The notes under the pieces are model-generated. The model saw only the letters and a list, made by a program, of their open reading frames with translations. It was not told the origin of the DNA and searched no databases. From Candidatus Omnitrophota bacterium (GTDB lineage: Bacteria > Omnitrophota > Gorgyraeia > JABMRG01), in the NCBI GenBank assembly GCA_028716165.1, contig JAQUQI010000007.1:1191-65190 (forward strand): DNA of 64,000 bases, read 5' to 3'. Positions 23,309-57,645 of the stretch are shown here, one piece after another. The position numbers and the translations under genes are program-made. The stretch's first letter is position 1; every line of letters begins with the position of its first letter.

Positions 23309-23532
23309 TATTGCAGGCGTCCTATTTGGAGACACCCTGCGTGCTCAATCACGTTCAATGGAAATACCTCACGTGTCATCCAGAGCGGCAGGAGGCGAGG
23401 CCAGAATAAGCCGCGAAGGATCTGGAAGTGAAGTCAGTATTAGATTCCTCGCTTCGCTCGGAATGACAAGGTGGACGCTCGGAATGACAAGGTGGACGAT
23501 CGGAATGACAAAGGCGGCGCTTGAAATGACAA
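23309..23532. repeat. mosaic palindromic repeat cluster A
   Basis: Left module attgcaggcgtcctatttggagacaccct…, then a tgtcatccagagcgg…gcgaaggatctggaagtga unit, then attagattcctcgcttcgctcggaatgaca and 3–4 further (c)ggaatgaca repeats. Confidence 0.85.
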
Positions 23533-23609
23533 GTCTTAAAAAGTTACACCGTGTCTTACAAGATAGGGGCAACGGTTCTTACAAAAATCAAAACGTCTGT
23601 AATAATAAA

Positions 23610-34041: not shown

Positions 34042-35259
34042 GTGAAAGAACTGATAAGATTAAAATCCAGGGGGCTTAAAGAGGCGCTGATTAAATTTTA
34101 TGCGAAACTCGGAAGCATTGAAGTCAAACCGGGTTGTATAGGCGAGTTTATGGATATTGTTACCGGCGAAATGAAGGCTCTTAATTTTGACAAGGTAACC
34201 AAGGATAAATCCGGTAACCTGATAGGGATAATAAAAGGCTATCGGAATAAGGAATCCCTGGTGCTATTGTCTCATGTCAGTGCTGTTTCCGCAACTCGGC
34301 AAAAAATAGAGGGTTTGCACGGTAACGATATGGTGAGGTTTAAGTCCGGTATTATTACCAGCATTTATACAGGAGCCTTGCTCAAAAGGGCTATGCTTCC
34401 GTTGGAAGGTGATTTGATAGTTTGTTGTATTCCGCGGATGGAATGTTGCGCTTTTGGAATCAAATATCTCTTTGACAATTTTTTGAAAGATAAAACCAAG
34501 AAGATTAAAGGCGTTATTCTTTGCGAACCTACCGGTTTTAACATAAATCTCGGGCACAAGGGCAGGATGGAGTACGAGATCGTGGTAAAAGGCAAATTAA
34601 ATAAGAATTTTTTGGAGAACCGCGGAATCAACATGCTGGGCACGATGTTTCCTTTGATAAACGAACTGGAGAAAATTTCTAAAGAATTACCAAGTGATTT
34701 TAATCTTGGGCGTTCTGACTTAAGGATAAAAGATGTGCGTTACAGCGGTTATCGGCCGCAGGAGGAAATGAACGAATTCCGGATAGTGGTAGACAGGGGT
34801 TTTGTCCCGGAGGAAACCAAAAGGTTTATTCTGGATAAGGCCAAAAATTTGGCCAAGGCGGTATACAAACAGGAAACAGATATTACTGTAAATGCCCTCT
34901 TGGTTAAAGAGAAGATCAGGACTTACACAGGGCTTAAACTTTTATCTAAAAAGGAATTTAAGCCATGGGCTATGGATGGCCATCGCCCTTTTGCTTTAAA
35001 CTCGCTTAAGAGTATAACCGAAAGCGGGTTTAAGTCGGATTTCGGGTATTGGCAGGATATTGTTACCGAAGGCTCTTATACGTATGCCCAGCTTGGGATA
35101 CCCACTATAGGTTTTGGCCCGGGCTCGGAAAATGATCTGGATCCCGCGGAGAAGACGCTGGGCATAGATAAACTGGAAAAGGCGGTTTACGGCCAGGCGC
35201 TGATAATCCATCGCAACATAGGCATGCCGATATTCGGCTGGAGCACCGATGAGATTTAA
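34042..35259 (+). CDS. divergent M20/ArgE-DapE-like protein (putative deacylase)
   Basis: …ILCEPTGFNINLGHKGRMEYEIVVKGK resembles the M20 catalytic domain. No canonical HxD metal motif was seen. Confidence 0.35.
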   Translation: MKELIRLKSRGLKEALIKFYAKLGSIEVKPGCIGEFMDIVTGEMKALNFDKVTKDKSGNLIGIIKGYRNKESLVLLSHVSAVSATRQKIEGLHGNDMVRFKSGIITSIYTGALLKRAMLPLEGDLIVCCIPRMECCAFGIKYLFDNFLKDKTKKIKGVILCEPTGFNINLGHKGRMEYEIVVKGKLNKNFLENRGINMLGTMFPLINELEKISKELPSDFNLGRSDLRIKDVRYSGYRPQEEMNEFRIVVDRGFVPEETKRFILDKAKNLAKAVYKQETDITVNALLVKEKIRTYTGLKLLSKKEFKPWAMDGHRPFALNSLKSITESGFKSDFGYWQDIVTEGSYTYAQLGIPTIGFGPGSENDLDPAEKTLGIDKLEKAVYGQALIIHRNIGMPIFGWSTDEI

Positions 35260-36484
35260 AAAAAATACGGTAAACATACTGGTGCTTAATTGCGGCAGTT
35301 CGTCCTTGAAGTATAAGATAATAAAAATGCCGGGCGGCACCGAACTTGTGCGTGGAGAAGCCGAGAGGGTGGGCATAAAGACCCAGGGTGTTTCCCGCAT
35401 TACACATTTTTCTTGTGGGAAAAAAACGGTGGTGGAAGTACCGCTTGCCAATCATGCGGCCGCGCTTAAAAAATCCCTGGAGCTCATAGCACGAGACAGC
35501 GCGGAAAACTCTGATATATGTTTTGATGTTTTCGCGCACCGCTATGTTCATCCGGGGACATTGTTTTCCAAGACTATGAAAGTTGACAAAGTGGTTTTAC
35601 GCAAGTTAAAAGATACACTGCCGCTCGCGCCTATACATAATCCTATAATTTACCGTTTGATTGAATTCTGCTACGATGAATATTACAACATAAGACAGTT
35701 TATAGTGTTTGATACTTCTTTTCATAGATCCATTCCCCCGGAATTTTCCACTTACGCTTTACCGTTAAAGATTATTAAAAAGTATCATATCCGCAGGATA
35801 GGTTTCCACGGCCTGTCCCATCAGTATGTTATGGAGGAGGCCTGTAAATTTTTGGGGAAAGACAAATCTTCGCAGAGAATAATAAGCTGTCATCTGGGGA
35901 CCGGCGGTTCAAGCGTTTGCGCTATTAATAACGGCAAATCCGTAAACAATTCCATGGGGTATACCCCGCTTGAGGGCTTGATGATGAATACCCGCTGTGG
36001 CAATATTGATCCTGGCATAATATTCTACATAATGTTTAAAGAACGGTTTTCCCCTGAAGAGACCGAAAGTGTTTTTAACAACAAAAGCGGGATTTTGGGT
36101 GTGTTAAATTTTTCGTCCGATTTACGGGACGCTATCAGGGATATGAGGAATAATCCCAGGGCCCGGATGGTATTTGATATGTATATACGCCGGGTAAGGT
36201 CGTATGTAGGTTTTTATTCGTTGATATTGAAAAAAGCGGATATGTTGATTTTTACGGATTCGTTGGGGGTGTCCTGTCCGGATTTGCGCCAGGGTGTTTG
36301 CAGAGGCATGGAGTTATTGGGCATCCGGCTGGATGAAGGTAAAAACGCGGGCTGCCGAGGTAATATAGGAGATATCTCATCTGTTAGGTCGGAGACGAAA
36401 GTTCTCGTTATCCCTACGGACGAGGAAATTATGATCGCCCGGCAAGCATACAGGGAGTTGATGAAAAATGATACTGGTTGTTGA
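35249..36484 (+). CDS. ackA: acetate kinase
   Basis: Motifs ILVLNCGSSSLKYKI, FDTSFH and GFHGLSH are present. Confidence 0.85.
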   Translation: MRFKKNTVNILVLNCGSSSLKYKIIKMPGGTELVRGEAERVGIKTQGVSRITHFSCGKKTVVEVPLANHAAALKKSLELIARDSAENSDICFDVFAHRYVHPGTLFSKTMKVDKVVLRKLKDTLPLAPIHNPIIYRLIEFCYDEYYNIRQFIVFDTSFHRSIPPEFSTYALPLKIIKKYHIRRIGFHGLSHQYVMEEACKFLGKDKSSQRIISCHLGTGGSSVCAINNGKSVNNSMGYTPLEGLMMNTRCGNIDPGIIFYIMFKERFSPEETESVFNNKSGILGVLNFSSDLRDAIRDMRNNPRARMVFDMYIRRVRSYVGFYSLILKKADMLIFTDSLGVSCPDLRQGVCRGMELLGIRLDEGKNAGCRGNIGDISSVRSETKVLVIPTDEEIMIARQAYRELMKNDTGC

Positions 36485-37559
36485 TTATAATCTTAAAGAG
36501 ATTAAGGTCTGGGGATTCAAAGGAGAGCATGGTTCTTTGCCGCCGGTTTTTACGAAGGATGCTGATGAGATAACCGACGACAATGTTCTCCGGGATTTTA
36601 TTCGCGCTGTTTCCTGCATGGATACCGTTGAAGCTATTTCTTTCAGGATATTGTTTGGAGGCGATTATTTTAAAAATCCGGCGCATTTATGTCCTGGGTT
36701 TTTCTCCAGGTTCTCAAAACTTACGGATCTTTTTCCTTTTTATGTCCCCTTGACTGTTGAGATGTTGAAAAGATTTTACAGGGTATTTAAGAATGCCCGG
36801 CTCATTGCTTTTTTTGAGACGTCGTTTTTTTTGAGGTTACCGGATAAAGAAAGATATTACCCGCTGCCTTTTGAGTATTACCGGAATAATAAAATAAAAA
36901 AGCGGGGGTTTCACGGAATATTTCATGAAGCAAACGCCGGCATATTCCCGGAAAGCGGGAAAAACATATCAATGGTTTTTGACAAACAAACGACTATATG
37001 CGCTATTCGTAATAAGAGCCCGCTGTCCATAAGTCTGGGGTATACGCCGCTGGAAGGCATTATGTCCCGGACGCACTGCGGAGACTTGGATGCCGGGATA
37101 ATATTTTATCTCATGAATGTCCAGCATTTTTCGAGCTATAAAATTGACGAGATGATGAAGCAGGAGAGCGGATTCCTCGGCCTTACCGGTTATGACATTG
37201 AATTAAAAGATATGCTCAAGCTTAAAGGTAAAGACCCTAAGGTTGACTTGGCGTTTAATGTGTATAGCGCCCAGATAATGAAATATATAGGGGAGACGAT
37301 ATCTGTTATGGGAGGATTGAATAATATAATTATAGCTGGCGACAATATTGATATATTCATTCCTGTAATTTACGATGTCCTCAAAAAAATATCTTTTTTG
37401 GGTATAAACTTATTGCGATTACCGTGGGACAATAAGACAAGTTTAATTAATATAACTTCCGAAGAATCCGGAATAGGAGTCTATCTTAACCGAATGAGCT
37501 TTCCGGAAATATTATCGCTTTGGACCAGGAATCTGATTTTTGCGCCTGTCAAACTGTAA
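36468..37559 (+). CDS. acetate-kinase-like degenerate paralog
   Basis: It aligns to AckA (FETSFF, GFHGIFH, GYTPLEGIM) but lacks the N-terminal NCGSSS and HLGNGAS catalytic motifs. Confidence 0.6.
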   Translation: MILVVDYNLKEIKVWGFKGEHGSLPPVFTKDADEITDDNVLRDFIRAVSCMDTVEAISFRILFGGDYFKNPAHLCPGFFSRFSKLTDLFPFYVPLTVEMLKRFYRVFKNARLIAFFETSFFLRLPDKERYYPLPFEYYRNNKIKKRGFHGIFHEANAGIFPESGKNISMVFDKQTTICAIRNKSPLSISLGYTPLEGIMSRTHCGDLDAGIIFYLMNVQHFSSYKIDEMMKQESGFLGLTGYDIELKDMLKLKGKDPKVDLAFNVYSAQIMKYIGETISVMGGLNNIIIAGDNIDIFIPVIYDVLKKISFLGINLLRLPWDNKTSLINITSEESGIGVYLNRMSFPEILSLWTRNLIFAPVKL

Positions 37560-37876: not shown

Positions 37877-38151
37877 ATCTACATGACTGTATAATAAAAA
37901 AAGTTTTAAAAAAGCTCTTAATTCCTTGACAAAAAGTTTATTTTGATATAAAATACCATTTAATAGACATTCTCACTACACCATTAGATATGTATGCCTA
38001 TAAATAATCCTTTCATAAATATCGTTTTTTCAAACGCTAAATATAATAACTATCAATTCGGTTGTTTAATCAATTCTAATAATAATCAAAGCGCGCGGTA
38101 ATATGTTTATCCGAGGGAAAAGTAACGGTTGTTAAAAATAAGGAGAACATT

Positions 38152-41100
38152 GTGAAGACAGTATTGAGAAGAGCTGTAGTTTTCATTGTTTTGCTTAGTT
38201 TTGTGTTTCCGAATACTATTTATGCCAATGATCTCAAAATTCACACCTTAAGGCAGATGTCAGCAGCTTTAAGCAATTTCAACAGCCGGTTTATTGATAA
38301 AGATTTCTTTTACGGAGAATTCAGTGATATAAAAAAAATATTAGACAGGGATATGTTCAGGGATTATGATTACCGGACAAGAGGCCGCGAAATTGACCCC
38401 CGCATAGCTTTTAGGATGGGGATTATCTGGGCGAGAATGGCCCTGGACAACATGTCCAGTTTTCATGTAGACAATAAAACTGTTATTTTTGCCCGGGATT
38501 GCCGTGACGTTAATCCCGAAATAGCCGAGGCTGTTATCGCGGGAGTAAGATATTGCGGGCTTAATGTAATTGATATTTCACAAACTATGCGTAACAGCGC
38601 CGCCGCTTATTCATGGTCTGTGATACAGCATAAGCCGCTTATGGGTATTTTTATGACCTCAAGTCATGTAACAGGCGATGGTGTATCAGGATTTAAAGTT
38701 AGCATAATGGGCAGAAACGGTAAACTGCAAAGCCTCACCACCAGAGAGATAAAAGATGTAAGTTATGGCCTGTTGACCCTGATGATAGAAGAGCCCGATA
38801 TTATAAACGCGTATAAAAGCCAGGATATGGGCAGTCTGAATGCCTGCCATGGCACAGAAACTGAAGCCGCGGATTTTATCACTTTATTAGGCAGGATAGT
38901 TTCAGGTGAACACAACAAAGAGCTGGCTGTCCGGGCAAGGACTGTTATGCGGTCAAAAGACCCGGCGGCAATGACCAGGCTGATGAACAATAGTATGGCA
39001 GGGCAACAGCCGTTGAAAGGCATGACGGTTGTTATAGATTCTGCCCATACACCAAGCGGTGTTATAGCTGAAAAGACGTTTGCTGATTTGGGGGCCGCGA
39101 TAATATCATTGCATGCCGAACCCATGCTTTTAAAAGGAAATCATAAGGCAGACCCGTCAAAGCCTGAAAATTTAGAAGACCTGAAAGCCGAGATGCTTAA
39201 ATCCGGAGCAGGCCTTGGCCTTGCTTTTGACCTTGACGGCGACAGAGGGGCTATTTGCGTGCCTGACGGAAGAGGCGGTGTAGACGTATTGTCACCGGAC
39301 AATGTTATGGCGGCTATATTGAAATTTCTCATTAAAGGGTGCGGTTATGAACAGACCGGACCGATTGCCGTGGTGCGTGATGTCTTGTCAACGCGGGGCG
39401 TTGACGACGAGGCAGAGCTGTATGGAGTGCGCGCGGAACAGACCGATGCCGGCTACGTCTTTTTAAAGGAAAGAGTCCGTTTTCTTCAGACCAACGGATT
39501 TACCGTCCCAATTTATGGAGAACGTTCCGGTCATATCTGGCTTGATGCCGCGGGCGAGTTTGAAAATCCAATAGCTGTAGCAGTGTTATTTGCCGTAATG
39601 AACTCTGACCTTCTTTTTAAATATAAACCCGTGGCCTATAAGCAGTCTCCCCGTTTTCAGCCGGAGTTTTCACAGCCGCTATTGGCCGTTCTTTCTTCTC
39701 ATAAGCACAACGATACGGGATGGAATTATAAAGAAGCGGTAGAATATCTTGTCAACGGAACCGGCCACAAGCCGCCGCAGAAGATTATAGCGCTTGGCAG
39801 GGACCACGCGATAAAAATTTTGTCAGAAGTGTTTAAAAAAGGCGCGGAGTTCAAGACTCCTATAGGTAAAATCAGCGTTGAGAGTTATGATACGTATAAA
39901 GACGACGAATCCGCGGGCGGGTTGTTTAGATACGCGGATATAGGTTTTTCAAGAAATGGAGAATATATAGGCAGATTCGTATTTCGCGCCTCATCCAATG
40001 ACCCTACGTTTGTTTGTTCTTTTGAAGCTGCTCATGGCAGTGGAGAGATTGGGGAAACTGTCAGCCTAAGATATATTTCCGTGGGAGGACTTGTTCTTGA
40101 TAGCCTGGAACAGCTTAAGTTAGCCTCTATTACCGGCGTGCCACAAGGCGTGCGCCAGACACTCGAAGACTATAGAAGCCTTATGAAGATACCGGCTGTT
40201 TCGGCCAATAATCCTATCTTCTTTGAATTTGTTTCAGCAGGGCAGACGCTCAACGGCGGGGTTGATTTTGAACCTATTCAAAAGCCCGGTTTTTTTCAAT
40301 CTATAAGCGAGGAGATGCTTGATAATATGGCTTTTGATCTTGCGTTCAGGACGGGAAAACCGGAAAGGCTTAAGATGCTGAATGAGATATTTGAAATAGC
40401 ATCTGTAAAAAAAATATTTCCCGCCTCAATACATAATCTATACATGGTAATGGGCAAAGGCTGGACAGGCGGTTTTACTGTTCCCGCCATAAATATTAGA
40501 GGGCTAACCTATTATACCGCCCGGGCGGCATTCAAAGCCGCTGTTAAGCGCAATGTCGGGGTAATGATATTTGAAATAGCAAGAAGCGAGTTAGGTTATA
40601 CCGGACAGGACGTATTGGAATACGCTGGCCAGATTACCTTGGCTGCAATGAGAGAAGGTTATGAAGGGCCTTTGTATTTCCAGATAGATCACGGCCAGGT
40701 CAATGCCAAAAAAGATTACGATTCAGAGATAAAGGCATTGAAAGACCTGTTCAGAGAAGCTATCGTTGACGCTAAATTCGGAAATATTGATGTGGATACA
40801 TCCACGCTGGCCCTGACAGAAGGCAGTCTCAAGGAACAGCAAATGCCGAACGCGCGCGCTATTGCTGAATTGATAAAAAATATCAGGTCTATAGAACCTG
40901 AAAACACCACCATATCTATAGGAGGCGAGGTAGGAGAAGTCGGCAACAGGAACACCACGCTTGATGACGTGGAGGCTTTCATGGACATATTAAACGGCAT
41001 GCTTACCGCCGATAATATATCCGTTGGTTTAAGCAAGTTGAGCATACAGACAGGAACGGCTCATGGAGGGGTCCCATTGCCGGACGGCAGTCTCGCGCAG

Positions 41101-42279
41101 GTAAACATTGATTTTGATATAATTGAAAAGGTAAGCGCATTAGTAAAAAAGAAATACGGCATGTCCGGGGCTGTCCAGCACGGCGCGTCCACCTTGCCTG
41201 ATGAGGCGTTTCATCATTTTGTTGATAAAAAAGCTTCTGAAATTCATCTTGCGACAGGATTTCAGAATATAATATTTGACAGCAAATATTTTCCGAAGGA
41301 ACTGCTCAACAGAATATATGAGATACTTCTGACGGATCCGGCCTTTGCCTCTGACAGGGCCAAGCTGGAATCCGGCAAACAGACAAAAGAGCAGTTTTTG
41401 TATTCAACAAGAAAAAAAGCGTTTGGAATACCGGAAATAAAGCTTGCAATGTGGACACTACCCGAAGAAACTATAGATAATATACTCAAGGAACTTGAGG
41501 AAAAATTCGGGTTTTTATTTGAACAATTGAATGTTGTTAATACTCTTAATCTGCGAAGATATGCCGTCAAAATACCTATCGGCAAATCCTCCTCCGCAGG
41601 TATCCTTGAACTCGACAAGCCTTATACCCTTACAGAGTACAACTTATTATCAGTCATAGATGAGTCTATACGCGAGAATAACGGTGTCCTGGCGAATACA
41701 CTTATTGAGTCCAAGCTCTCGGCAGAGCTTATCAGGCTTTGCCCTAAGTTTTTAGCAGATCAGGCCGGCCTTGAAAGAAACCACATTGTTGCCATTGATG
41801 ATAAGATGCTTCCCGAAGGCCATATATTCAATAAGTATCTTTTAAAAGATACGGCACAGCATCAGGCCCTGGAAGAGTCTCATGGCTGTATGATACGCTT
41901 GTTGTCCCAGCTGACAACAGATGAGTTGACAGGCAGAAACCTTATAATCATATCGGACCGCAGGAGCATAGAAGGATATGAAAAGGCCCTATATCTCAAT
42001 GTTGATAAACAAAGGATAGATGCCGGACTCCTGCTCGCCCCGTATATCGGTATAGCAAGGCTTTTGCTTTCCGCAAGAGAGGACATAGTAATTGACATAA
42101 CAAACGCCTTAAACAAGGACAACCTTTACAGTATGCTTTTTGGCAGGCCTGCCAAGGAAGATGATATAAGGAAATTCCTTATTGAAGGTATATATGAACT
42201 TCCGGCCCCTGCCATTGTCAATTATCAGCAGGCAGAGGACATGCACCGCGCCTCATTGGCCGCGTTGATAGCAGCTTAA
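38152..42279 (+). CDS. 1375-aa secreted multidomain protein: phosphomannomutase/phosphoglucomutase-like domain, class II fructose/tagatose-bisphosphate aldolase domain and a shared 233-aa C-terminal domain
   Basis: Signal peptide. PGM/PMM-like motifs TSSHVTGDG and LAFDLDGDRGAI. Class II aldolase motifs FTVPAINIRG, YFQIDHG, SIGGEVGEVG, TGTAHGG and VQHGAST. The C-terminus is identical to that of the next gene. Confidence 0.7.
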   Translation: MKTVLRRAVVFIVLLSFVFPNTIYANDLKIHTLRQMSAALSNFNSRFIDKDFFYGEFSDIKKILDRDMFRDYDYRTRGREIDPRIAFRMGIIWARMALDNMSSFHVDNKTVIFARDCRDVNPEIAEAVIAGVRYCGLNVIDISQTMRNSAAAYSWSVIQHKPLMGIFMTSSHVTGDGVSGFKVSIMGRNGKLQSLTTREIKDVSYGLLTLMIEEPDIINAYKSQDMGSLNACHGTETEAADFITLLGRIVSGEHNKELAVRARTVMRSKDPAAMTRLMNNSMAGQQPLKGMTVVIDSAHTPSGVIAEKTFADLGAAIISLHAEPMLLKGNHKADPSKPENLEDLKAEMLKSGAGLGLAFDLDGDRGAICVPDGRGGVDVLSPDNVMAAILKFLIKGCGYEQTGPIAVVRDVLSTRGVDDEAELYGVRAEQTDAGYVFLKERVRFLQTNGFTVPIYGERSGHIWLDAAGEFENPIAVAVLFAVMNSDLLFKYKPVAYKQSPRFQPEFSQPLLAVLSSHKHNDTGWNYKEAVEYLVNGTGHKPPQKIIALGRDHAIKILSEVFKKGAEFKTPIGKISVESYDTYKDDESAGGLFRYADIGFSRNGEYIGRFVFRASSNDPTFVCSFEAAHGSGEIGETVSLRYISVGGLVLDSLEQLKLASITGVPQGVRQTLEDYRSLMKIPAVSANNPIFFEFVSAGQTLNGGVDFEPIQKPGFFQSISEEMLDNMAFDLAFRTGKPERLKMLNEIFEIASVKKIFPASIHNLYMVMGKGWTGGFTVPAINIRGLTYYTARAAFKAAVKRNVGVMIFEIARSELGYTGQDVLEYAGQITLAAMREGYEGPLYFQIDHGQVNAKKDYDSEIKALKDLFREAIVDAKFGNIDVDTSTLALTEGSLKEQQMPNARAIAELIKNIRSIEPENTTISIGGEVGEVGNRNTTLDDVEAFMDILNGMLTADNISVGLSKLSIQTGTAHGGVPLPDGSLAQVNIDFDIIEKVSALVKKKYGMSGAVQHGASTLPDEAFHHFVDKKASEIHLATGFQNIIFDSKYFPKELLNRIYEILLTDPAFASDRAKLESGKQTKEQFLYSTRKKAFGIPEIKLAMWTLPEETIDNILKELEEKFGFLFEQLNVVNTLNLRRYAVKIPIGKSSSAGILELDKPYTLTEYNLLSVIDESIRENNGVLANTLIESKLSAELIRLCPKFLADQAGLERNHIVAIDDKMLPEGHIFNKYLLKDTAQHQALEESHGCMIRLLSQLTTDELTGRNLIIISDRRSIEGYEKALYLNVDKQRIDAGLLLAPYIGIARLLLSAREDIVIDITNALNKDNLYSMLFGRPAKEDDIRKFLIEGIYELPAPAIVNYQQAEDMHRASLAALIAA

Positions 42280-42431
42280 AATGTATTACGGAGACTAGTA
42301 TCAGATTCCTCGCTTCGCTCGGAATGACAGGCGTACTTTGCCTGTCATCCAGAGCGGCAGAAGGCGAAGCCAGAGTAGGCCGCGAAGGATCTGGGAGTGA
42401 CCCATGTGTCATCCAGAGCGGCGGAAGGCGA
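41580..42431 (+). repeat. copy 1 of an 852-bp, 100 %-identical direct repeat (coding C-terminus plus start of a repeat cluster)
   Basis: Identical to 44119–44970 by direct comparison. Confidence 0.9.
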
Positions 42432-42661: not shown

Positions 42662-44818
42662 ATGAAAAAGATTATTATTAAAGCAATAAACATTGCTATG
42701 GCTATTGTTTTTTCTGCCTCGTCAATTGTTTCCGCGCAGGTTCTTGATAATAGCAATACGCAGTATTTACGCGCCCCTGCCGCGGCAGGTAATGTTACAG
42801 CGGATTTAACGCACGCGCTTTCCGCGCCGCCGGTAGAGACTTTTCCCTGGTGGCATATCACCGAGCGTAAAGTAGCAAAGTATATAGCCGAATTAAGCGG
42901 TACACGGGATGAACGTTATCGCGCGGCAATAGAGCTTGGCAGGCTTGGTAAGCATGCCGAACCTTCCATTCCGTATCTTATAAAGGTGATGCTTTCTGAT
43001 GAAGAAAAAGGCCTGCGGACTGCAAGCGCGGCTTCACTTGGGGCTATTGGTATTCCTTCGCAAGAGGTTGTGTCCGCATTAAACAAGGCCTTGGAGGACA
43101 GCGAATACGATGTGCGTGTCAAGGCCATGCGTTCTTTGGCGGCATTAGATAAGCTTACCGTTGAGATGAAAGTCAAAAGATATATAATGGACATGGGTGA
43201 TGCCGATCCTAATGTTCGCGCTAATGCAAGCAAAGAATTGTATAATATCGGCTACCCCGCCATTCCTATTATAGAGGCCAGGAAAAATTCGAATGAGGTT
43301 TTAGCTAAAGCCGTGGATTCATTATATTGGCGCATTCTCCGCGGCAAATTATTTGATGTAGAAAATTTGATGAGACAGTTAGAGGGTGAAAATAAGGCCG
43401 CGCAGGAAAGGGCATCTGATATATTCTTCCGGCTCGGTAATGAAGCGGTACCTATATTAATAGAGGCATTAGGTTCTAATAAGCATAAACTGCGTTTGCG
43501 GGTATCCGAGATACTTTTCCGGATAGGGCTTATCGCTGCCGATGACCTTGCAAACGCTTTAAAAGAAGACGATCTATACATAAGGACATATTCCGCTGAT
43601 GTCTTAACCAGGCTTGGCATTAAGTCCGCGCCGTTTGTTATTAGAGAGCTTGGCAATCGCACAAGTAATGCGCGTTTTTATGTAAAATCAATTCTTTTAA
43701 GATTAGGCCCCGAAGTTATTCCGATGCTTTCGGATGTACTGAATATAGGTGATAATTCAGCGTGTGAAGACGCTATTGATATTCTAGAAGAGTTTTCCAA
43801 ACAGCTTCCGGAAAGAAATATTGTTTTAATAAGGGCGTTAGGGCACAATAACTGGTTTGTAAGAGAGCAGGCATTGAAAGCGATTAAACGGATTGGGTTA
43901 TTGACAAAAGATATGGAGCTATTCAAATACAGCAAAGACTTAAAGGATGAAGCCTGCCCGGGATTTATTAAGCAGGATGCCTTGAGAGGGTTAAGCGTTT
44001 TGCCGGGTCCTGGATCACACAAGATTGTAACGGCGTTTAAAACTTTTGATCCAGATCTGGGTCATATGCGTGAAAACGCATTAGATGACCTTGCTCCCGG
44101 AGTTGATGAAGATAAAGGCGGCAAATCCTCCTCCGCAGGTATCCTTGAACTCGACAAGCCTTATACCCTTACAGAGTACAACTTATTATCAGTCATAGAT
44201 GAGTCTATACGCGAGAATAACGGTGTCCTGGCGAATACACTTATTGAGTCCAAGCTCTCGGCAGAGCTTATCAGGCTTTGCCCTAAGTTTTTAGCAGATC
44301 AGGCCGGCCTTGAAAGAAACCACATTGTTGCCATTGATGATAAGATGCTTCCCGAAGGCCATATATTCAATAAGTATCTTTTAAAAGATACGGCACAGCA
44401 TCAGGCCCTGGAAGAGTCTCATGGCTGTATGATACGCTTGTTGTCCCAGCTGACAACAGATGAGTTGACAGGCAGAAACCTTATAATCATATCGGACCGC
44501 AGGAGCATAGAAGGATATGAAAAGGCCCTATATCTCAATGTTGATAAACAAAGGATAGATGCCGGACTCCTGCTCGCCCCGTATATCGGTATAGCAAGGC
44601 TTTTGCTTTCCGCAAGAGAGGACATAGTAATTGACATAACAAACGCCTTAAACAAGGACAACCTTTACAGTATGCTTTTTGGCAGGCCTGCCAAGGAAGA
44701 TGATATAAGGAAATTCCTTATTGAAGGTATATATGAACTTCCGGCCCCTGCCATTGTCAATTATCAGCAGGCAGAGGACATGCACCGCGCCTCATTGGCC
44801 GCGTTGATAGCAGCTTAA
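42662..44818 (+). CDS. secreted HEAT/PBS-lyase-repeat protein carrying the same 233-aa C-terminal domain
   Basis: Start placed at MKKIIIKAINIAMAIVFSASS (signal peptide; GGAGGG Shine-Dalgarno). HEAT-like repeats (AAIELGRLGK…, VRVKAMRSLAAL…). The C-terminus from GKSSSAGILELD… is identical to that of 38152–42279. Confidence 0.7.
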   Translation: MKKIIIKAINIAMAIVFSASSIVSAQVLDNSNTQYLRAPAAAGNVTADLTHALSAPPVETFPWWHITERKVAKYIAELSGTRDERYRAAIELGRLGKHAEPSIPYLIKVMLSDEEKGLRTASAASLGAIGIPSQEVVSALNKALEDSEYDVRVKAMRSLAALDKLTVEMKVKRYIMDMGDADPNVRANASKELYNIGYPAIPIIEARKNSNEVLAKAVDSLYWRILRGKLFDVENLMRQLEGENKAAQERASDIFFRLGNEAVPILIEALGSNKHKLRLRVSEILFRIGLIAADDLANALKEDDLYIRTYSADVLTRLGIKSAPFVIRELGNRTSNARFYVKSILLRLGPEVIPMLSDVLNIGDNSACEDAIDILEEFSKQLPERNIVLIRALGHNNWFVREQALKAIKRIGLLTKDMELFKYSKDLKDEACPGFIKQDALRGLSVLPGPGSHKIVTAFKTFDPDLGHMRENALDDLAPGVDEDKGGKSSSAGILELDKPYTLTEYNLLSVIDESIRENNGVLANTLIESKLSAELIRLCPKFLADQAGLERNHIVAIDDKMLPEGHIFNKYLLKDTAQHQALEESHGCMIRLLSQLTTDELTGRNLIIISDRRSIEGYEKALYLNVDKQRIDAGLLLAPYIGIARLLLSAREDIVIDITNALNKDNLYSMLFGRPAKEDDIRKFLIEGIYELPAPAIVNYQQAEDMHRASLAALIAA

Positions 44819-44970
44819 AATGTATTACGGAGACTAGTATCAGATTCCTCGCTTCGCTCGGAATGACAGGCGTACTTTGCCTGTCATCCAGAGCGGCAGA
44901 AGGCGAAGCCAGAGTAGGCCGCGAAGGATCTGGGAGTGACCCATGTGTCATCCAGAGCGGCGGAAGGCGA
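44119..44970 (+). repeat. copy 2 of the 852-bp perfect direct repeat
   Basis: Identical to 41580–42431. Confidence 0.9.
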
Positions 44971-45232
44971 AGTACGCTTCGTTAGCGAAGGATCTGGAAG
45001 TGACCCATGTGTCATCCAGAGCGGCATAATCGGGGTAGAAGTCGTTAGCGAAGGATCTGGAAGTGACCCATGTGTCATCCAGAGCGGAACCGGCGAAGCA
45101 AGCTTCGTTAGCGAAGGATCTGGGAGTGAAATCAGTATTAGATTCTTCGTCGCGCCTTCGGCGCTCCTCTGAATGACAAGGAGGACGCTCGGAATGACAA
45201 TGAGAGGCTCGCAATGACAAGGGTGAGGCTCG
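44834..45232. repeat. mosaic repeat cluster F
   Basis: Three regularly spaced copies of a gttagcgaaggatctggaagtgacccatgtgtcatccagagcgg unit with about 20-nt variable cores. The right end matches cluster B. Confidence 0.85.
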
Positions 45233-45286
45233 GTCACCAAAACGTAAAAATCAAAATGTCTGTAATTATAATTTGTAGCCACTAAT

Positions 45287-45616
45287 ATGCGTCTGTTAAT
45301 AATATTTTTAATGTTGTCTTTGGTATTGTCTCCAGCGATAAACGTGGTTGCGCGACAGTTAAGTCTGCACGAAGTGTCTTTAGCAGACTGGATATCCTTT
45401 TCCGATATGGAAAAAGAGGTTTTTATTGCCGAAGCATGCAAGCATATGGTTGAGATTGAGAAAGAAAAATTTGTCATGATACCTGATGTAAAAATGATAG
45501 CCAGGGTCCTTGATTCGGGCATTAAAGGTGTAGACATTGATAAATCGGATATTTCAGTGTTCAGGCTTTTATATAGATGCCTCAAAGATACCGGATATTT
45601 TGCCCCCCGTTTATAG
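45287..45616 (+). CDS. small secreted protein (paralog of 32567–32899)
   Basis: Signal peptide. Conserved …ADWISFSDMEKEVFIAE.CKHMVEIE.EKFVMIPDVKMI… segment shared with its paralog. Confidence 0.6.
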   Translation: MRLLIIFLMLSLVLSPAINVVARQLSLHEVSLADWISFSDMEKEVFIAEACKHMVEIEKEKFVMIPDVKMIARVLDSGIKGVDIDKSDISVFRLLYRCLKDTGYFAPRL

Positions 45617-45890: not shown

Positions 45891-46127
45891 ACCGTGCCTT
45901 GCAAAATGGGGACAGCGGCTTTCATAAAAATCAAAACGTTTGCGGTTGTTTTTATAAAAAATATAAATAATGTGTTGACACCCTGTCTTTGTATGCGGTA
46001 AAATGTTTTCAAATGAAAAAAATCATATAGCATGTCATCTAACATTCAAATTCTTAATTCGTTTTTATCTTTTTGGGTGAAGTGCCGCCAATCTTACATT
46101 ATAAATTATCAAAAAAGAGGAGGAGGT

Positions 46128-49100
46128 ATGAAAAAGCTGTGCGCTGTTTTATTGGTGTTTTCCATGATTGGCCTTATGCCTGTCAACAGTTTCGCGGCAA
46201 GCGCGACATGGGATGGCAGTGATAGCGGGCTTTGGGTCACAGGAGGAAACTGGGTAGGTGATTCGGCTCCCGGTATTGCCGACGGAACGATCGTCAGCAC
46301 CGACGTAGCGACATTTACAGGTGTGCTCAATAATGCTGTTACGGTTGATGATACCAGAAACGTTTCCGGTATCACCTTTGATGCCGCGGCAGGCGCTTTT
46401 ACGTTAAGCGGCAGTACTCTTTACCTTACAGCGAGCGGCACCGTGCAAAATCATGCCGACATTGCAACCACCCAGACAATTAATTCCAATATACTGTTAG
46501 GTGGTGATTACACCTTTACCAACATTGCCACAGACAATAGCAAGCTTATGAATTTTGGCGGAACAATAACAGGCTTTGCGGATACCGCGCAAACTCTTAC
46601 TCTTAGCGGCGGCAACACGGGATCAAATACATTAAGCGGTGTAATAAGTAACGGCAGCGGAACGGGTGTTTTAGGTATAACCAAGTCAGGCGCCGGCACA
46701 TGGATACTTTCAGGAAATAATACCTATACAGGAACAACTACTATCAGCGCCGGGACACTTACCGCGACAAACAGCGCAAATGCTCTCGGCGCCGGCGCGG
46801 TAGCAATCTCAGGCGGCACACTTAATCTTGCCAATGACACCGGGCTGGCTTTTGGCCGTAACGTGACTGTAAGCGGTGACGCGACTATTAATTCCGATAC
46901 ACTTACCGGTGTAGCCGGTGTCACACATACTTTGGGTACATTAAGCATAGGTGCTAATACTTTAACTGTCGGTCTTGCTACTACAGCCGCCAGCGGTGAG
47001 CAAGCACTTACCTTTGGCGATGTTACATTGACCGGTGCCGCTACTATTAACGCGAATACCGGTGTTGGCGGAGCAACCGGATTGCTGACTCTTGGCGCGG
47101 TAGGCGGTGACGGGCAAAATCTTACTATAGGTGGTTCGGCAGGTACCAATATAACCGGTATTATCGGAACAGGCGCAGGGACGCTTACCAAAAATGGCAC
47201 AGGCACACTTACCTTATCAGGCGTTAATACTTACAGCGGCGGCACAACAATCAGCGCCGGTGTTGTAAGCGCTACAACGTCAGCGGAAGCTTTGGGTACA
47301 GGCGCTATTACCGTTGCGGACGGCGCGGCACTTCAGGTGACAGGCGCTCTTGATTTTGATGAAGCGCTTACAATAAGCGGCACCGGTATAAGTTCAGGAG
47401 GTGCTCTTAGAAATATCAGCGGTAATACAAACTGGTCAGGCGTTGTAACTTTAGGCGCGAATGCCAGGATCAATTCGGATGCGGACACCCTGACATTAAG
47501 CGGCGCTACTATTGACGAGGCCTTTGACATAACCGTAGGCGGAGCGGGCAATACCGCTATAACAGGCATCATTGCCACAGGCGCTAATACAATTACAAAG
47601 GACGGCACAGGCACACTTACCTTATCAGGCGTTAATACTTACAGCGGCGGCACAACAATCAGCGCCGGGACACTGCAGGTAGGCAATAATTCAGCCTTAG
47701 GTGCCGGAGCTGTGAACAATAACGCGACATTAAATATAGGAACATATACAGTTGATATAGGAGCCGGTGTTTATACTCAAGGCGCCGGCAGCAGCCTGCA
47801 ATTGACTGCCAATTCTTCAACTGAATACGGCAGTATTGTGTCAACAGGCGACGCCGCGGATGCAGCCGCGGCAAGCACGGTTGATGTCACGGTAGGCGGT
47901 TACATACCCCATAGCACCGTGCTGACGGTCCTTAATACCGGCGCCGGCAGTACCATTGACGATACCTTGATTACGACTACATCAACCAGTTCAAAAATAA
48001 GTTTTACACCTTCAATGTCAAGCGGAAAACTTATCCTGACAGCAAACCGCTCGGCAACAGGTTTTTCCAGTAATGGCACGGATTCCAATGCTAAGGCCTT
48101 GGGTTATGTCCTTGACAATGTCACCAATCCCACGTCGGATATGACCACCGTGTTAAATACCCTTGAGGGACTTTCGGCAGCAAACGTTGATACCGCGCTC
48201 CAGACCCTTGAGCCATCAGTTGATGCCGGTGTTATAGGCGCCAGCAATCTTGCCGCCGGACAGTTTATACAGACTATCATAAGCCGTTTCGGAGTAGATA
48301 GAGGACCTTCGGGCGTTGCCACAGGAGACCCCAATATAAAGACAAAAGATATATGGGCAAAAGGTTTCGGAACATATGCCAAACAGGACAAGAGAAAGGG
48401 CATTGAAGGTTACAGGGCTGATGTCATAGGTGCTGCCGTCGGCGTGGATTTTGTCGCCACGGAAAAGGCCACTCTCGGTATCAGTGCGGGCTACGCGTAT
48501 AGCAAGATAAAACCCAAAAAGACAAGCCTCGGCAGAACGGAATCAGATAGTATGCAGGGTTCTTTATACTACAGCTATAATAATGAATTAAATTATATAG
48601 GTAAAGACGCCTTGTATTTTGATCTTATCGGTTCATTCGCTTGGAATATGTATGAAGGAAAGCGTAATGTGTCCGCAGGCAGTATAAGCAGGCAGGCAAA
48701 GTCCGATTATGACGGCCAGCAGTATACTGCATATGCTGAATCAGGCTACTATATCCCATCGGGCAACATAGATTTTGTCCCGCTCGCCTCTTTGCAGTAT
48801 AGCCGTCTTGAGATTGAAAAATACACCGAAAGCGGGGCTGATTCGCTGAACCTTACGGTTAATAAACAGCATTACGACCTTCTGGAATTAGGGCTCGGCG
48901 TAAAGGTCTCTTCAATAATGAAAAACGAAGGTTACGATGTCATCCCTTCGGTAAGGGGCAAATGGCTCTATGACTTCATAGGCGACAAAATGGAGACAAC
49001 CTCAAGATTTACCGGAGGAGGCGCTTCATTTAGCACAACAGGCGCCGAACCTGCAAAGAGTTCTTTTGACATAGGAGCCAGCCTTACGTTTTTGGGTAAA

Positions 49101-49193
49101 AACAATGTAAAGGTTGACTTTGATTATGACTTTAATTTTAGGGATGATTTTAATTCCCACAACGGTGCTATAACGGTTAAATATAGTTTTTAA
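46128..49193 (+). CDS. autotransporter outer-membrane protein with PATR-type passenger repeats
   Basis: Start at MKKLCAVLL after AAGAGGAGGAGG. Signal peptide. Repeated [20 protein letters not shown] motifs. The C-terminal beta-barrel ends …ITVKYSF. Confidence 0.8.
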
Positions 49194-53684: not shown

Positions 53685-54215
53685 ATCATCCGGGGCGGCA
53701 GTATTAGATTCCTCGCTTCGCTCGGAATGACAGACGCACTTTGCCTGTCATCCAGAGCGGCAGGAGGCGAGGCAAGTGTCAGCCGCGAAGGATCTGGGAG
53801 TGAGCCCTGTGTCATCCAGAGCGGAACCGGCGAAGCAAGTTTCGTTAGCGAAGGATCTGGGAGGGAAATCAGTATTGGATTCTTCGTCGCGCCTTCGGCG
53901 CTCCTCTTAAATGACAAGGAAGCCCACGGCGCTCCTCTGAATGACAAAAGGAGGCGAGTACCAGATTCCTCGCTTCGCTCGGAATGACAGGCGTACTCTG
54001 CCTGTCATCCAGAGCGGAACCGGCGAGGCACGGGTCATACGCCTGTCATCCAGAGCGGAACCGGCGAGGCACGGGTCATACGCCTGTCATCCAGAGCGGC
54101 AGGAGTCGGGGTCAGTGTGAGCCGCGAAGGATCTGGGAGTGAAGTCAGTATTGGATTCTTCGTCGCGCCTTCGGCGCTCCTCTGAATGACAACGATAGCC
54201 TTCGGCGCTCAAGGT
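53685..54215. repeat. mosaic repeat cluster I (longest, about 530 bp)
   Basis: At least seven units. It contains an exact tandem duplication of a 41-bp unit, cctgtcatccagagcggaaccggcgaggcacgggtcatacg, at 54001–54082. Confidence 0.85.
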
Positions 54216-55432: not shown

Positions 55433-56098
55433 ATGGACAAGCAGACCTCGGATGAAAGACTGCTGAAATTGCTTGAAGGCCAGTATTCTTCAACCCATGG
55501 CCCGTTAGCGCCATCACAGCCCGCGCAGCACCCTAAGCCGGCAAAGCGACTGGGCATAAAACCCGTTTCCAGGCTCAATATCCTAAAGCCTTTTTTAAGG
55601 CTAAAAATAGCAAAATTTGACCTGGCATATATTAACAAGTCTCTTTTCGCGCTGGCATTCTTATTAAGCGCTGTCTTTTTTTACATACTGTTTGTGTCCC
55701 CCGCATTATCGGGTGCCGCGGGCGCTATCCTTCATCCTGCCGATATTACCCAGATACAAAGGCTGATAAAGGCAAGCCACAACCAGCTTGAAATGCGCGG
55801 CAATATTTCTGAAGCGGAATCAGAAAGGGACATCTTCCTGCCTTTCGGCGTTAAAAGCGCTTACGAGGAAGAACAGGAGATAAACATAGAAGATGAGCTT
55901 GGCATATATAAGCTGGTTGGGATTATATGGTCTCAAGTGCCCGAGGCGATAATTGAAAGCGAAATGGACACCAGGACGCTTGTCGTTAAAAAAGGCGATA
56001 CACTTGGTGATAAATGCACGGTAAAAGACGTCCTGCGCAATTCCGTCATACTGCAGGTATCAACAAAAGACGGGCTAAGGGACTATGAATTAAGATGA
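55433..56098 (+). CDS. single-pass membrane protein of the secretin locus
   Basis: One TM helix (LFALAFLLSAVFFYILFV) and no recognised domain. Confidence 0.4.
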   Translation: MDKQTSDERLLKLLEGQYSSTHGPLAPSQPAQHPKPAKRLGIKPVSRLNILKPFLRLKIAKFDLAYINKSLFALAFLLSAVFFYILFVSPALSGAAGAILHPADITQIQRLIKASHNQLEMRGNISEAESERDIFLPFGVKSAYEEEQEINIEDELGIYKLVGIIWSQVPEAIIESEMDTRTLVVKKGDTLGDKCTVKDVLRNSVILQVSTKDGLRDYELR

Positions 56099-57645
56099 GA
56101 GCATGGCCCTGTTTGGTTTTGTGTTGTCTGCTTGCGGCATCAGGCCCCGGCCCGCGCCCGGCGCGGGCAGAAGAAGGGTTGCCTTCCCCTTCTTTAGCGG
56201 AAGAGGCGGTTGAGCAAAGCCGCGAATATACCGATAAGATATATCTTGACCTTAAAGGTATTGATGTAAAAGAGCTTTTCAGGATTTTATCCCAGCGAAG
56301 CGGGATAACAATAATTACCACCCCCGCGGTGCAGGGCCGCGTGACGGTGCTGATAGATAATTTAAGTTTTGAGAACGCCTTGGATGTTATTATGACTACG
56401 CAAAACTTGGCTTACGAAAGAAACGGCAACCTGATGAAGGTCATGACAGCGGATGAATACGAAAAGGCTTTCGGCAGAAAATTCTGGGACAGGAAAGAGA
56501 CCCGCGCGATCAAACTTTCATATGCCAAGCCTGAAAGCGCGATGGGGGTAATAAATTTTTTAAAATCAGACCTCGGCCAGATAGTGTCAGAACCCGCTAC
56601 AGGCACTATTGTTGTCACCGATACCCCGCAGGCTATCAGCGCTATAATGGAGGCGATAAATGAGCTTGATGCCCCGCCCGGAAGCCTTGTGTATAATGTT
56701 AATTACGCGCGCATGGCGGACATAAAAAATTATCTGGAAGGGCTGATTACGCCGGAACTCGGCAAGATAATCATTGATGAAAGGAGCAGTAAGGTCATAA
56801 TATATGACCTGCCGCGCAGGCTTGAGCGCATAGCGGAACTTTTGCAGGAACTTGATGAGCAGTCCCGCCAGGTGCTTATAACGGGTGAGATAGTGGAAGT
56901 TGACATAAGCGATAATTTCCAAAGCGGCATTGAATGGGAGAAGATATTCCGGTCCGCGAATATGGATAACCTTGACCTGACGTCAAAATTTCCCGTAACC
57001 CCGGCGCTTACAAGCTACGGAAAGATAAGCATGGGCACATTATCAAGGGATAATTATAATGTGGTGATGAATATGCTCTCCGAATACGGCAATACAAGGA
57101 TACTCAACAGGCCGAGAATAGTCGCGGTCAATAAGGAAGAGGCGAAGATACTCGTCGGAACACGCGAGGCGTATGTGACGTCCACCCAGAGCCAGAGTGA
57201 GACGACCGTAGTCACTTCCGAAAGCATTAATTTTATTGACGTGGGCGTTAAGCTTGTAGTAGTACCTACTATAGGTGTTGACGGTTTTATAACCATGAGG
57301 ATAAAACCCGAGGTGAGTTCCGTAAAAGAAGTGCTGGAGACTACGGCGGGAACAAGGGTGCCGATAGTAAGGACATCGGAATCGGAGACAGTGGTAAAGG
57401 TAAAAGACGGCAATACGCTTATTATTGCCGGTTTATTGTCAGAGACCGATACAGACGATGCCACAGGCCTTCCTGGTTTCGCGAAAACACCAATATTCGG
57501 GGGATTATTCGCTACAAAGACAAAGGAAAAGCAGAAAACCGAACTGGTCATATTTATTACCCCCAAGATTGTTACGGGCGCTGTAAACTTTTCAGATGAG
57601 AAAACAGATATTTTTGACAATAAGGATGGCAATGAGAAGGGGTAA
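56095..57645 (+). CDS. secretin (GspD/PilQ/MshL family)
   Basis: N-terminal STN-like domain. Secretin C-domain motifs: NRPRIVAVNKEEAKILVG, GLPGFAKTPIFGGLF…LVIFITPKIV. Confidence 0.8.
   Translation: MRAWPCLVLCCLLAASGPGPRPARAEEGLPSPSLAEEAVEQSREYTDKIYLDLKGIDVKELFRILSQRSGITIITTPAVQGRVTVLIDNLSFENALDVIMTTQNLAYERNGNLMKVMTADEYEKAFGRKFWDRKETRAIKLSYAKPESAMGVINFLKSDLGQIVSEPATGTIVVTDTPQAISAIMEAINELDAPPGSLVYNVNYARMADIKNYLEGLITPELGKIIIDERSSKVIIYDLPRRLERIAELLQELDEQSRQVLITGEIVEVDISDNFQSGIEWEKIFRSANMDNLDLTSKFPVTPALTSYGKISMGTLSRDNYNVVMNMLSEYGNTRILNRPRIVAVNKEEAKILVGTREAYVTSTQSQSETTVVTSESINFIDVGVKLVVVPTIGVDGFITMRIKPEVSSVKEVLETTAGTRVPIVRTSESETVVKVKDGNTLIIAGLLSETDTDDATGLPGFAKTPIFGGLFATKTKEKQKTELVIFITPKIVTGAVNFSDEKTDIFDNKDGNEKG

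Follow-up and report, generated by a model that had tools for sequence, protein, structure and literature searches.

For giant proteins of the phylum Omnitrophota, the preprint by West-Roberts et al. (2023) describes 'Archaeovorins' whose regions predicted to be extracellular contain TIM, PGI, FBPase, PGM/PMM and FBA domains, and a 2026 preprint presents a 'multi-enzyme metabolic cluster' class together with a sugar-metabolism co-occurrence module including the three PGM/PMM Pfam families. In Chlamydia trachomatis, CT295 is a phosphoglucomutase with an acquired secretion signal that converts glucose 1-phosphate to glucose 6-phosphate in the inclusion lumen (PMC9251005). Here, we describe a gene at positions 38152 to 42279 of a stretch of 64,000 nucleotides from Candidatus Omnitrophota bacterium (GenBank assembly GCA_028716165.1, contig JAQUQI010000007.1, positions 1,191 to 65,190), termed the window in the following. 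It encodes a protein of three modules, an alpha-D-phosphohexomutase-like module, a class II aldolase module and a C-terminal domain (CTD). In our estimate, the chances are about even that this three-module Omnitrophota enzyme is targeted out of the cytoplasm.

As far as the accessible parts of the preprints describe the Omnitrophota giant proteins, our protein shares with them the phylum, the mixing of the same enzyme domains and a predicted location outside of the cytoplasm. Archaeovorins comprise tens of thousands of residues and numerous transmembrane helices, whereas the protein studied here has 1375 residues and a single N-terminal hydrophobic segment. It also lacks SecA_DEAD, C39/S8 peptidase and dockerin domains as judged by Pfam as well as internal transmembrane helices, and is not counted among the Archaeovorins. 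Measured against the accessible text of this literature, domain mixing in Omnitrophota giant proteins is known already, while the CTD and a class of sugar enzymes combining it with a leader and a short motif, the 'TLR box', are new; a search of that text turned up neither the CTD nor the TLR box nor the small leader/CTD class. With CT295, the protein appears to share the principle that a housekeeping-type phosphohexomutase of the Planctomycetes-Verrucomicrobia-Chlamydiae (PVC) superphylum carries an export signal for conversion outside of the bacterial cytoplasm. The differences lie in the signal, N-terminal type III in CT295 and Sec-like here, and in the fact that CT295 is a single, experimentally tested enzyme, whereas ours is fused to an aldolase and the CTD and known from sequence.

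The reading frame of 1375 codons proposed in the first-pass annotation was borne out. GTG 38152 is the earliest possible start downstream of an in-frame stop, a Shine-Dalgarno sequence precedes it, and the identical product is present at NCBI (MDD5504596.1), labelled 'class II fructose-bisphosphate aldolase' and encoded on a 68.5-kb contig of a Candidatus Omnitrophota metagenome-assembled genome (MAG). The same annotation had proposed a fusion of two domains. Both are present, and all motifs quoted for them were located at the residues given (TSSHVTGDG 169, FDLDGDRGA 359, PAINI 778, IDHG 845, GGEVGEVG 924, TAHGG 969, QHGAS 1009), while a third module, residues 1144-1375, had been missed. The approximate placing of the domains was right, with borders that move from 80-560 to 64-662 for the mutase, the block common to 37 homologs in BLAST, and from 730-1150 to 722-1143 for the aldolase, which corresponds to the length of free-standing relatives of about 420 residues. 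The gene is made up as follows:

38152..42279, + strand: whole gene, 1375 codons plus stop (open reading frame list, NCBI MDD5504596.1)
38140..38145, + strand: Shine-Dalgarno sequence AAGGAG, 6 nt before the GTG start (direct read)
38152..38226, + strand: N-terminal leader, residues 1-25, with K2, R6 and R7, the core AVVFIVLLSFVF and the c-region PNTIYA followed by ND
38245..38271, + strand: TLR box HTLRQMSAA, residues 32-40, motif [ST]LR[APQ]x[SA] located 5-20 residues after the leader
38341..40137, + strand: alpha-D-phosphohexomutase (PGM/PMM-like) module, residues 64-662 (Pfam, PDB alignment, motif conservation, AlphaFold2, Foldseek)
40315..41580, + strand: class II (metal-dependent) ketose-bisphosphate aldolase, residues 722-1143 (Pfam PF01116, clade alignment, AgaY alignment)
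41581..42276, + strand: CTD, residues 1144-1375 (232 residues), alpha/beta, starting with GKSSSAG and ending with SLAALIAA-COOH

Residues 64-662 represent a complete four-domain alpha-D-phosphohexomutase with predicted catalytic sites intact. Pfam assigns PGM_PMM_I to residues 68-200 (E 1e-7), PGM_PMM_II to residues 289-373 (E 3e-11) and PGM_PMM_III to residues 382-464 (E 5e-6), all above gathering cut-off. Domain IV (PF00408) was not detected by Pfam; nevertheless, the fold match spans the entire PMM/PGM target. An AlphaFold2 model calculated from 18 sequences (predicted local distance difference test score, pLDDT, 89.7; predicted template modelling score, pTM, 0.88) exhibits the heart-shaped four-domain fold of the superfamily, with domains I-III of the alpha/beta/alpha type and a TATA-binding protein-like domain IV. 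Its best PDB neighbours in Foldseek are PMM/PGM enzymes (E 5e-27, template modelling (TM) score 0.80-0.84 normalised to targets of 455 residues), and these are followed by GlmM, archaeal PGM/PMM and PGM1, with E values of 1e-19 to 5e-27 over the whole set. The module retains the catalytic phosphoserine loop, the D-x-D-x-D-R metal loop and the loops for sugar and phosphate, with Ser171/His172, Lys182, Asp360/362/364-Arg365, Glu457/Ser459/His461 and Arg612-Ser614-Asn616 as key residues.

A comparison with PMM/PGM (AlgC) from Pseudomonas aeruginosa is instructive in both directions. The two share the four-domain fold (TM 0.82) and the R-x-S-x-N/T-x-P phosphate loop of domain IV, and three loops align residue for residue. 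In phmmer alignments against the PDB, Ser171-His172 falls on Ser108-His109 of the P. aeruginosa enzyme (1K35), FDLDGDR on FDGDGDR (Asp242/244/246) and GERSGH on GEMSGH (Glu325/Ser327/His329), such that the catalytic residues match one for one. In contrast, overall identity is only about 19%, and the module is about 140 residues longer (about 600 compared to about 460) owing to extra segments between domains I and II and within domain IV. In the Ser loop, SHV(S/T) takes the place of SHNP, and the metal loop is FDLDGDR. Furthermore, the mutase belongs to a separate clade (E <= 1e-80 inside versus about 1e-15 to ordinary PMM/PGM), the members of which always occur within longer multi-domain proteins and usually follow a leader. 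Of the labelled members, all but one stem from Omnitrophota. The GlmM, PMM/PGM and PgmG equivalogs of NCBIfam reach 66-86 bits compared to cut-offs of 439-618 and yield no specific substrate assignment. In general terms, the module would interconvert hexose 1-phosphate and hexose 6-phosphate via a bisphosphate intermediate.

Owing to the divergent Ser loop, the first-pass annotation had considered the mutase domain as a possible binding module. Non-enzymatic use of the mutase and/or aldolase folds as carbohydrate- or phosphate-binding or adhesive surface modules could indeed be read from TSSHVT in place of the canonical SHNP, from NCBIfam equivalog scores that all stay far below cut-off and from the failure of Pfam to detect PF00408. 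In the alignment of the mutase module, however, Ser and His of the Ser loop are present in 37/37 informative sequences and the three Asp of the metal loop plus Arg365 in 38/38, and T-[AS]-S-H-V, Lys182, F-D-L-D-G-D-R, G-E-x-S-G-H and R-A-S-S-N-D-P are invariant or nearly so among 37 relatives. As these catalytic and ligand positions are retained at an overall identity of only about 40%, the mutase appears to be selected for catalysis. The V/T substitutions occur family-wide and thus the SHV Ser loop is best viewed as a clade signature under selection and not as decay. The model includes domain IV, the phosphate loop of which (RASSNDP) is conserved, and conservation in the aldolase clade is of the same kind. 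We consider a purely non-enzymatic function highly improbable, and the idea of a binding module does not hold for the mutase.

The assignment of the second enzyme module holds as well. F_bP_aldolase (PF01116) covers residues 772-1042 (E 7e-13, 49.2 bits versus a cut-off of 25.5), and with the Pfam domains above gathering cut-offs, the PDB alignments and the fold match both of the originally proposed families are confirmed. The cbbA subfamily of NCBIfam remains sub-threshold (37-41 bits versus 215.6). Searches with residues 701-1375 returned, among the best 120 of 8000 matches, free-standing proteins of 418-475 residues with 50-54% identity. They carry PF01116, often together with a weak PF08013, and the named ones originate from Chloroflexota and Binatia. 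Asn781 (PAIN), Asp846-His847, Glu926/Glu929, His971 and His1010 are invariant in an alignment of our protein with 19 relatives. The best PDB matches of a clade profile are AgaY (3e-3) and GatZ (1e-2), and the alignment with AgaY pairs the GTAHG and HGAS motifs, i.e. the surroundings of the two C-terminal His residues. Aldolases feature a site of three His plus Asn, and GatZ/KbaZ epimerases one of His/His/Glu plus Cys (PMC11907403). By this distinction, the site found here is of the FBA type with an Asp-His pair, three His and Asn.

Gene context adds to the picture of this clade. On two unrelated contigs, free-standing relatives (52-53% identity) start 14-18 bp after a phosphofructokinase gene:

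L007 4868-7284: phosphofructokinase and aldolase of about 420 residues
L008/L009 4878-7269: phosphofructokinase and aldolase of about 420 residues

On one of the two (L008/L009), genes for glycogen phosphorylase and PPDK adjoin the pair. The protein of about 420 residues is probably the glycolytic aldolase of those Chloroflexota-like genomes, a context that supports the role of the clade as aldolase for fructose 1,6-bisphosphate (FBP) and not that of the fused copy. A GatZ/KbaZ-type fructose 6-phosphate 4-epimerase, brought into play by the touch of PF08013 among the relatives, was set aside in view of the three-His plus Asn site and the pairing of relatives with phosphofructokinase. The module thus resembles class II aldolases (FbaA, AgaY/GatY and the phosphofructokinase-linked clade) in PF01116, in the identity to its free-standing relatives and in its FBA-type site. 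It differs from the latter in being embedded between mutase and CTD, and the clade as a whole differs from FbaA and AgaY in having neither a solved structure nor an NCBIfam equivalog. Because Asp846, the three-His metal site and Asn781 are kept, the domain is most likely a true aldolase of the FBP type, from a clade not yet characterised by structure, that cleaves or forms fructose 1,6-bisphosphate. Specificity for another ketose bisphosphate (tagatose bisphosphate) or a C4-epimerase activity remains as an alternative, the more so as certain 'class II aldolases' of Chloroflexota may serve as fructose 6-phosphate epimerases.

How the two enzymes came together is suggested by the closest relative, P0001, which is 55% identical over residues 1-701. 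It occurs on four Joint Genome Institute (JGI) contigs and exhibits a leader-mutase-CTD architecture without aldolase, its CTD being only 32% identical to ours. The aldolase thus has the appearance of a cassette that was placed between mutase and CTD. Elsewhere, among the 37 relatives, the mutase module is fused to transaldolase, UTP-glucose-1-phosphate uridylyltransferase (UGPase), PGI, TIM, FBPase, GlpX, HAD and receiver domains. PF01116 is listed for none of these 37, the aldolase matches (best 120 of 8000) are all free-standing without a mutase-aldolase fusion among them, and a scan of a genome collection with a narrower CTD alignment detected two Omnitrophota MAG loci only and no mutase-aldolase ortholog. 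The combination had been called unusual on first inspection. This is correct for bacteria in general; within Omnitrophota, it appears as one case of a recurrent pattern, a wider habit of shuffling the mutase module among enzyme domains.

The CTD is, by all comparisons made here, a novel lineage-specific domain. An exhaustive HMMER scan of 1.84 billion representative proteins retrieved 36 CTD proteins only, with lengths of 88 to 5,707 residues, and all taxon-labelled members belong to Omnitrophota. The match extends to the last residue in every one of the 36, and the proteins have in common a core of about 170 residues followed by a tail that reads ...F-x-L-P-x-P...Y...E...R-x-[AS]-L-x-A-[LA]-I-[AS]-A-COOH. 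Neither Pfam nor NCBIfam nor PDB contains a match to the CTD sequence. Its AlphaFold2 model (alpha/beta, pLDDT 88.8, pTM 0.87) has no fold neighbour in the PDB according to Foldseek, with a best E of 0.34 and a TM score of about 0.2. An assignment as SIS-like phosphosugar-binding domain was rejected, as SIS domains occur among insignificant Foldseek matches only (TM 0.19-0.25, E > 0.3).

The proteins that end in the CTD are diverse. Cargo includes two kinds of glucose-6-phosphate isomerase, PGM_PMM, FGGY sugar kinase, aldose 1-epimerase, UGPase, fucose pyrophosphorylase, NAD-dependent epimerase/GDP-mannose dehydratase and adenylate kinase together with NTP-transferase, and besides these enzymes also scaffolds of HEAT, LRR or TPR repeats. 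Relatives bearing the CTD reach 5,400-5,700 residues, and some adjoin multi-enzyme genes of more than 7,000 residues. Since the domain is strictly terminal, spread over unrelated cargo and co-occurs with leaders, the pattern suggests a module for addressing or docking that these proteins share. The architecture of a Sec leader at the N-terminus, variable cargo and a conserved domain at the extreme C-terminus within one lineage is reminiscent of the C-terminal domains of type IX secretion system (T9SS) substrates and of cellulosomal dockerins. This is an analogy only: T9SS domains are beta-sandwiches of about 80-100 residues and dockerins pairs of Ca-binding repeats, whereas the CTD is an alpha/beta domain of 170-230 residues, on which neither the T9SS sorting domain (TIGR04183/PF18962) nor dockerin (PF00404) is found by Pfam or NCBIfam.

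Hydrophobic -x-A-A tails are not confined to proteins with the CTD. They end many leader-bearing proteins of this lineage (ALIAA, IGNAA, ILAAA; IEQAA, IAMAA and IEKAA in relatives of the mutase family), for example:

38152-42279: window reading frame, the gene described here
42662-44818: window reading frame
15145-18396: window reading frame
L010 17596-20256: reading frame on a JGI contig

Other '-AA' tails (reading frame 15145-18396; P0010/11/20/21) are missed by the CTD profile. As a class, the -x-A-A tails bear a tentative resemblance to ssrA-type ...LAA ends recognised by ClpXP or tail-specific proteases.

At the other end of the protein, the leader begins with M-K-T-V-L-R-R, continues with the 12 hydrophobic residues of the core and closes with P-N-T-I-Y-A, after which the sequence goes on with N-D. 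On inspection, it thus displays a basic n-region, an h-region within 7-15 residues and small residues at -1/-3, and there is no second hydrophobic segment of comparable strength in the 1375 residues. We applied a crude n/h-region heuristic calibrated on proteins of the same window. It was negative for 7/7 housekeeping cytoplasmic proteins and positive for our protein as well as for 5/5 obligately exported or obviously leader-bearing ones (autotransporter, two secretins, two others), in agreement with the earlier suggestion of an export signal at the N-terminus. The leader is conserved from residue 1 in P0001, the relative with 55% identity, and recurs in 26/35 CTD proteins and in 21/34 proteins of the mutase family with an initial start codon; most of the leaderless exceptions are short or probably truncated. 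The TLR box occurs in 19/26 leader-bearing CTD proteins and also in the HEAT-repeat protein encoded next to our gene, in reading frame 15145-18396 and in three adjacent large genes of the JGI contig L010. We infer cleavage after A25 and Sec export, with an uncleaved signal anchor as the alternative.

Two further observations concern the distribution of leader and TLR box. Reading frame 15145-18396 (+ strand, 1083 residues, without Pfam match) has a leader of the same type, an NTLRPISS box, internal repeats of about 45 residues (...AGxIAxEAxKxxxPGV...) and the C-terminus ...AIGNAA; it possibly belongs to the leader/TLR-box class as well, with a tail of another kind. L010 (JGI Ga0117909_1000227, 1-27482) is an array of very large genes. 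The first, the start of which lies outside of the locus, encodes more than 7,033 residues with Glucan_synthase, two ADK, GDPGP1_C and PHP domains, and those following encode 2,493 residues (NTP_transferase, ADK, CTD), 853 residues and more than 3,631 residues (PGM_PMM_II). The last three begin with a leader plus [SD]TLR[AP] box, and leader/TLR-box genes thus cluster.

An enzyme that stays inside the cell has to be weighed against export. The hydrophobic segment could anchor the protein to the inner membrane or not be inserted at all. In this case, the enzymes would act on the usual sugar phosphates of the cytoplasm, and the CTD would assemble a glycolytic/gluconeogenic and nucleotide-sugar complex with HEAT/LRR scaffolds and further enzymes on the cytoplasmic face. 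Cofactor logic speaks for such a metabolon, as ATP-, UTP- and NAD-dependent enzymes are among the CTD proteins, and the fusion partners of the mutase cover TIM, FBA, FBPase, PGI, PGM and UGPase, a coherent cytoplasmic route. In the accessible text of the 2026 preprint, PGM/PMM falls into a co-occurrence module with starch synthase and GT1, West-Roberts et al. voice doubt about the extracellular prediction in that of theirs, and the uncharged stretch of residues 8-26 amounts to 19 residues, borderline for a membrane helix. However, K2, R6 and R7 precede the core and by the positive-inside rule therefore place the N-terminus inside and the body of 1350 residues outside. After the strictly hydrophobic core of only 12 residues come a helix-breaking Pro and a site of small residues (I-Y-A), an arrangement like that of cleaved signal peptides, and in the n/h test the leader is indistinguishable from those of the autotransporter and the secretins of the same window. 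A cytoplasmic metabolon appears unlikely to us, albeit worth serious consideration, and export is favoured on account of the positive-inside rule, the brevity of the hydrophobic core and the controls from the same genome.

If the protein is exported, the leader would drive Sec-dependent transport and bring the enzymes to the periplasm or beyond. The CTD, perhaps with the TLR box, would act as a shared address or docking module for enzymes and repeat scaffolds and either gather them at a single site outside of the cytoplasm or hand them on to a second step of secretion. The assembled proteins may form a carbohydrate-phosphate pathway outside of the producer's cytoplasm, which could use sugar phosphates obtained from the cell of a host or prey. 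Several points weigh against this export model. CTD cargoes that need ATP, UTP or NAD+ (FGGY kinase, adenylate kinase, UGPase, epimerase/dehydratase) would not be expected in the periplasm, nor would the bisphosphate activator needed by the mutase. Mutase and aldolase do not catalyze consecutive steps, so that the model gives no account of substrate channelling in one polypeptide. The role of the CTD is deduced from position and distribution alone, and a regulatory or catalytic function is conceivable as well. Roughly one third of the relatives in the mutase family do not possess a leader, though many among them are possibly fragments or have a misassigned start. Finally, the accessible text of West-Roberts et al. 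cautions that extracellular predictions for glycolytic domains of Omnitrophota may be wrong.

The cofactor problem would be resolved if the exported enzymes were effectors directed at a host or prey cell, where they redirect sugar-phosphate and nucleotide-sugar pools to the advantage of the Omnitrophota cell, with cofactors supplied by the host. By analogy, such a role would reconcile the leader with nucleotide- and NAD-dependent CTD cargo. Omnitrophota have been proposed to be host-dependent or predatory nanobacteria (PMC10066038). In Chlamydia, from the PVC superphylum as well, the phosphoglucomutase CT295 is secreted into the inclusion, as are glycogen enzymes (PMC9251005; PMC4829429), and microsporidia secrete hexokinases (PMC6460350). 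In addition, there are two secretin genes 14 kb downstream. On the other hand, a Sec leader alone leads to the periplasm only, the gene has no linked injection apparatus and the source MAG no known host, and the CTD resembles no known secretion signal in Foldseek, profile and PDB sequence comparisons. We rate an effector function as improbable. More broadly, leader, TLR box and ...ALIAA CTD may constitute an undescribed, maybe Omnitrophota-specific sorting or assembly system that takes sugar enzymes and HEAT/LRR/TPR scaffolds outside, be it to the periplasm, the surface or a host, and joins them there into a carbohydrate pathway, and our protein would then be a small member of a system that builds multi-enzyme proteins of 10,000-100,000 residues. 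We put this forward as a tentative proposal that is rather less probable than not.

The end of the gene is duplicated in the immediate neighbourhood, and short repeats surround it:

41580..42431, + strand: 852-bp exact direct repeat, copy 1, comprising the codons of the CTD, the stop and a 3' flank of 152 bp
44119..44970, + strand: 852-bp exact direct repeat, copy 2, at the 3' end of the HEAT gene
42662..44818, + strand: HEAT-repeat neighbour, 718 residues, P0064 = MDD5504598.1, consisting of leader, YLRAPAA box, HEAT repeats and CTD
37684, 37725, 42343, 42407, 42579, 44882-45087, 45687, 45750, 53746-54099 and 60477-60595, + strand: examples of intergenic repeat sites

The two 852-bp copies are 2,539 bp apart and provide two adjacent, otherwise unrelated genes with the same last 232 codons. 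The HEAT protein is the top match of residues 701-1375 and 100% identical to our protein over the last 232 residues. The repeat begins precisely at the linker GKSSSAG, where homology to aldolases stops. The exact duplication suggests that a CTD-coding cassette was recently copied between the neighbouring genes or that gene conversion took place.

Repeats of this kind in a metagenome-assembled contig raise the question of whether the reading frame is a chimera joined through the 852-bp repeat or through the intergenic repeats. The perfect duplication at a distance of 2.5 kb and the density of intergenic repeats around our gene and the HEAT gene would fit such an artefact. Yet the repeat contains the whole CTD plus stop and therefore gives the same protein however it is resolved, so that only the junction between aldolase and GKSSSAG matters, and this lies exactly at a domain border. 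The arrangement leader-mutase-CTD is seen independently in P0001, with its divergent CTD and on its four contigs, and the mutase-aldolase junction lies outside of any repeat. An assembly chimera is unlikely, to a degree that we hardly reckon with it.

The intergenic repeats have a period of about 64 nt with the core TGTCATCCAGAGCGG...GCGAAGGATCTGGGAGTGA; 27 copies are present in the window, all on the + strand, with none expected by chance, and Rfam contains no match. They create spurious reading frames or N-terminal extensions, as seen for the 42539 start of the HEAT gene, reading frame 23358-24182 and the minus-strand reading frame 44884-45585.

Otherwise, the window has the appearance of an ordinary bacterial chromosome with nearly all genes on the + strand, among them those for NrdD, RtcB, SerRS, SHMT, an ABC exporter, an autotransporter and two secretins. 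One further element was noted upstream of our gene, in the part of the 590-bp spacer that is rich in AT:

37926..37954, + strand: promoter-like TTGACA-17-TAAAAT, 11/12, a consensus match only, such sites in the region being not above shuffled expectation

Acetate-kinase-family genes are arranged in tandem further upstream (35249-36484 and 36468-37559). The second matches positions 80-354 of the 392 profile positions only (E 9e-43) and is a divergent or truncated paralog. Downstream, an autotransporter with PATR repeats is located at 46032-49193; the listed ATG probably lies too far upstream, because a canonical signal peptide begins at codon 33. The tandem secretin genes (56095-57645 and 57596-60439) encode proteins with Secretin and Secretin_N domains, the second with additional C-terminal TPRs. 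They may offer exported proteins a path across the outer membrane, with a conjectural link to the enzyme described here.

Omnitrophota are abundant, uncultured and probably host-dependent, and their huge multi-enzyme proteins are too large for direct study. The gene described here presents the same phenomenon in miniature, with enzymes of central carbon metabolism and intact predicted active sites behind a leader. The CTD, compact and well-folding in the model, links enzymes of this type with repeat scaffolds throughout the phylum. If leader and CTD indeed serve export, sugar-phosphate metabolism would take place in an unexpected compartment, in parallel to the secreted phosphoglucomutase of Chlamydia, a new sorting or docking signal would be defined, and the protein of 1375 residues, or even a CTD protein of 450 residues, would offer a concrete experimental handle. 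Should the enzymes turn out to be cytoplasmic after all, the CTD would still define a new module for the assembly of scaffolds and enzymes.

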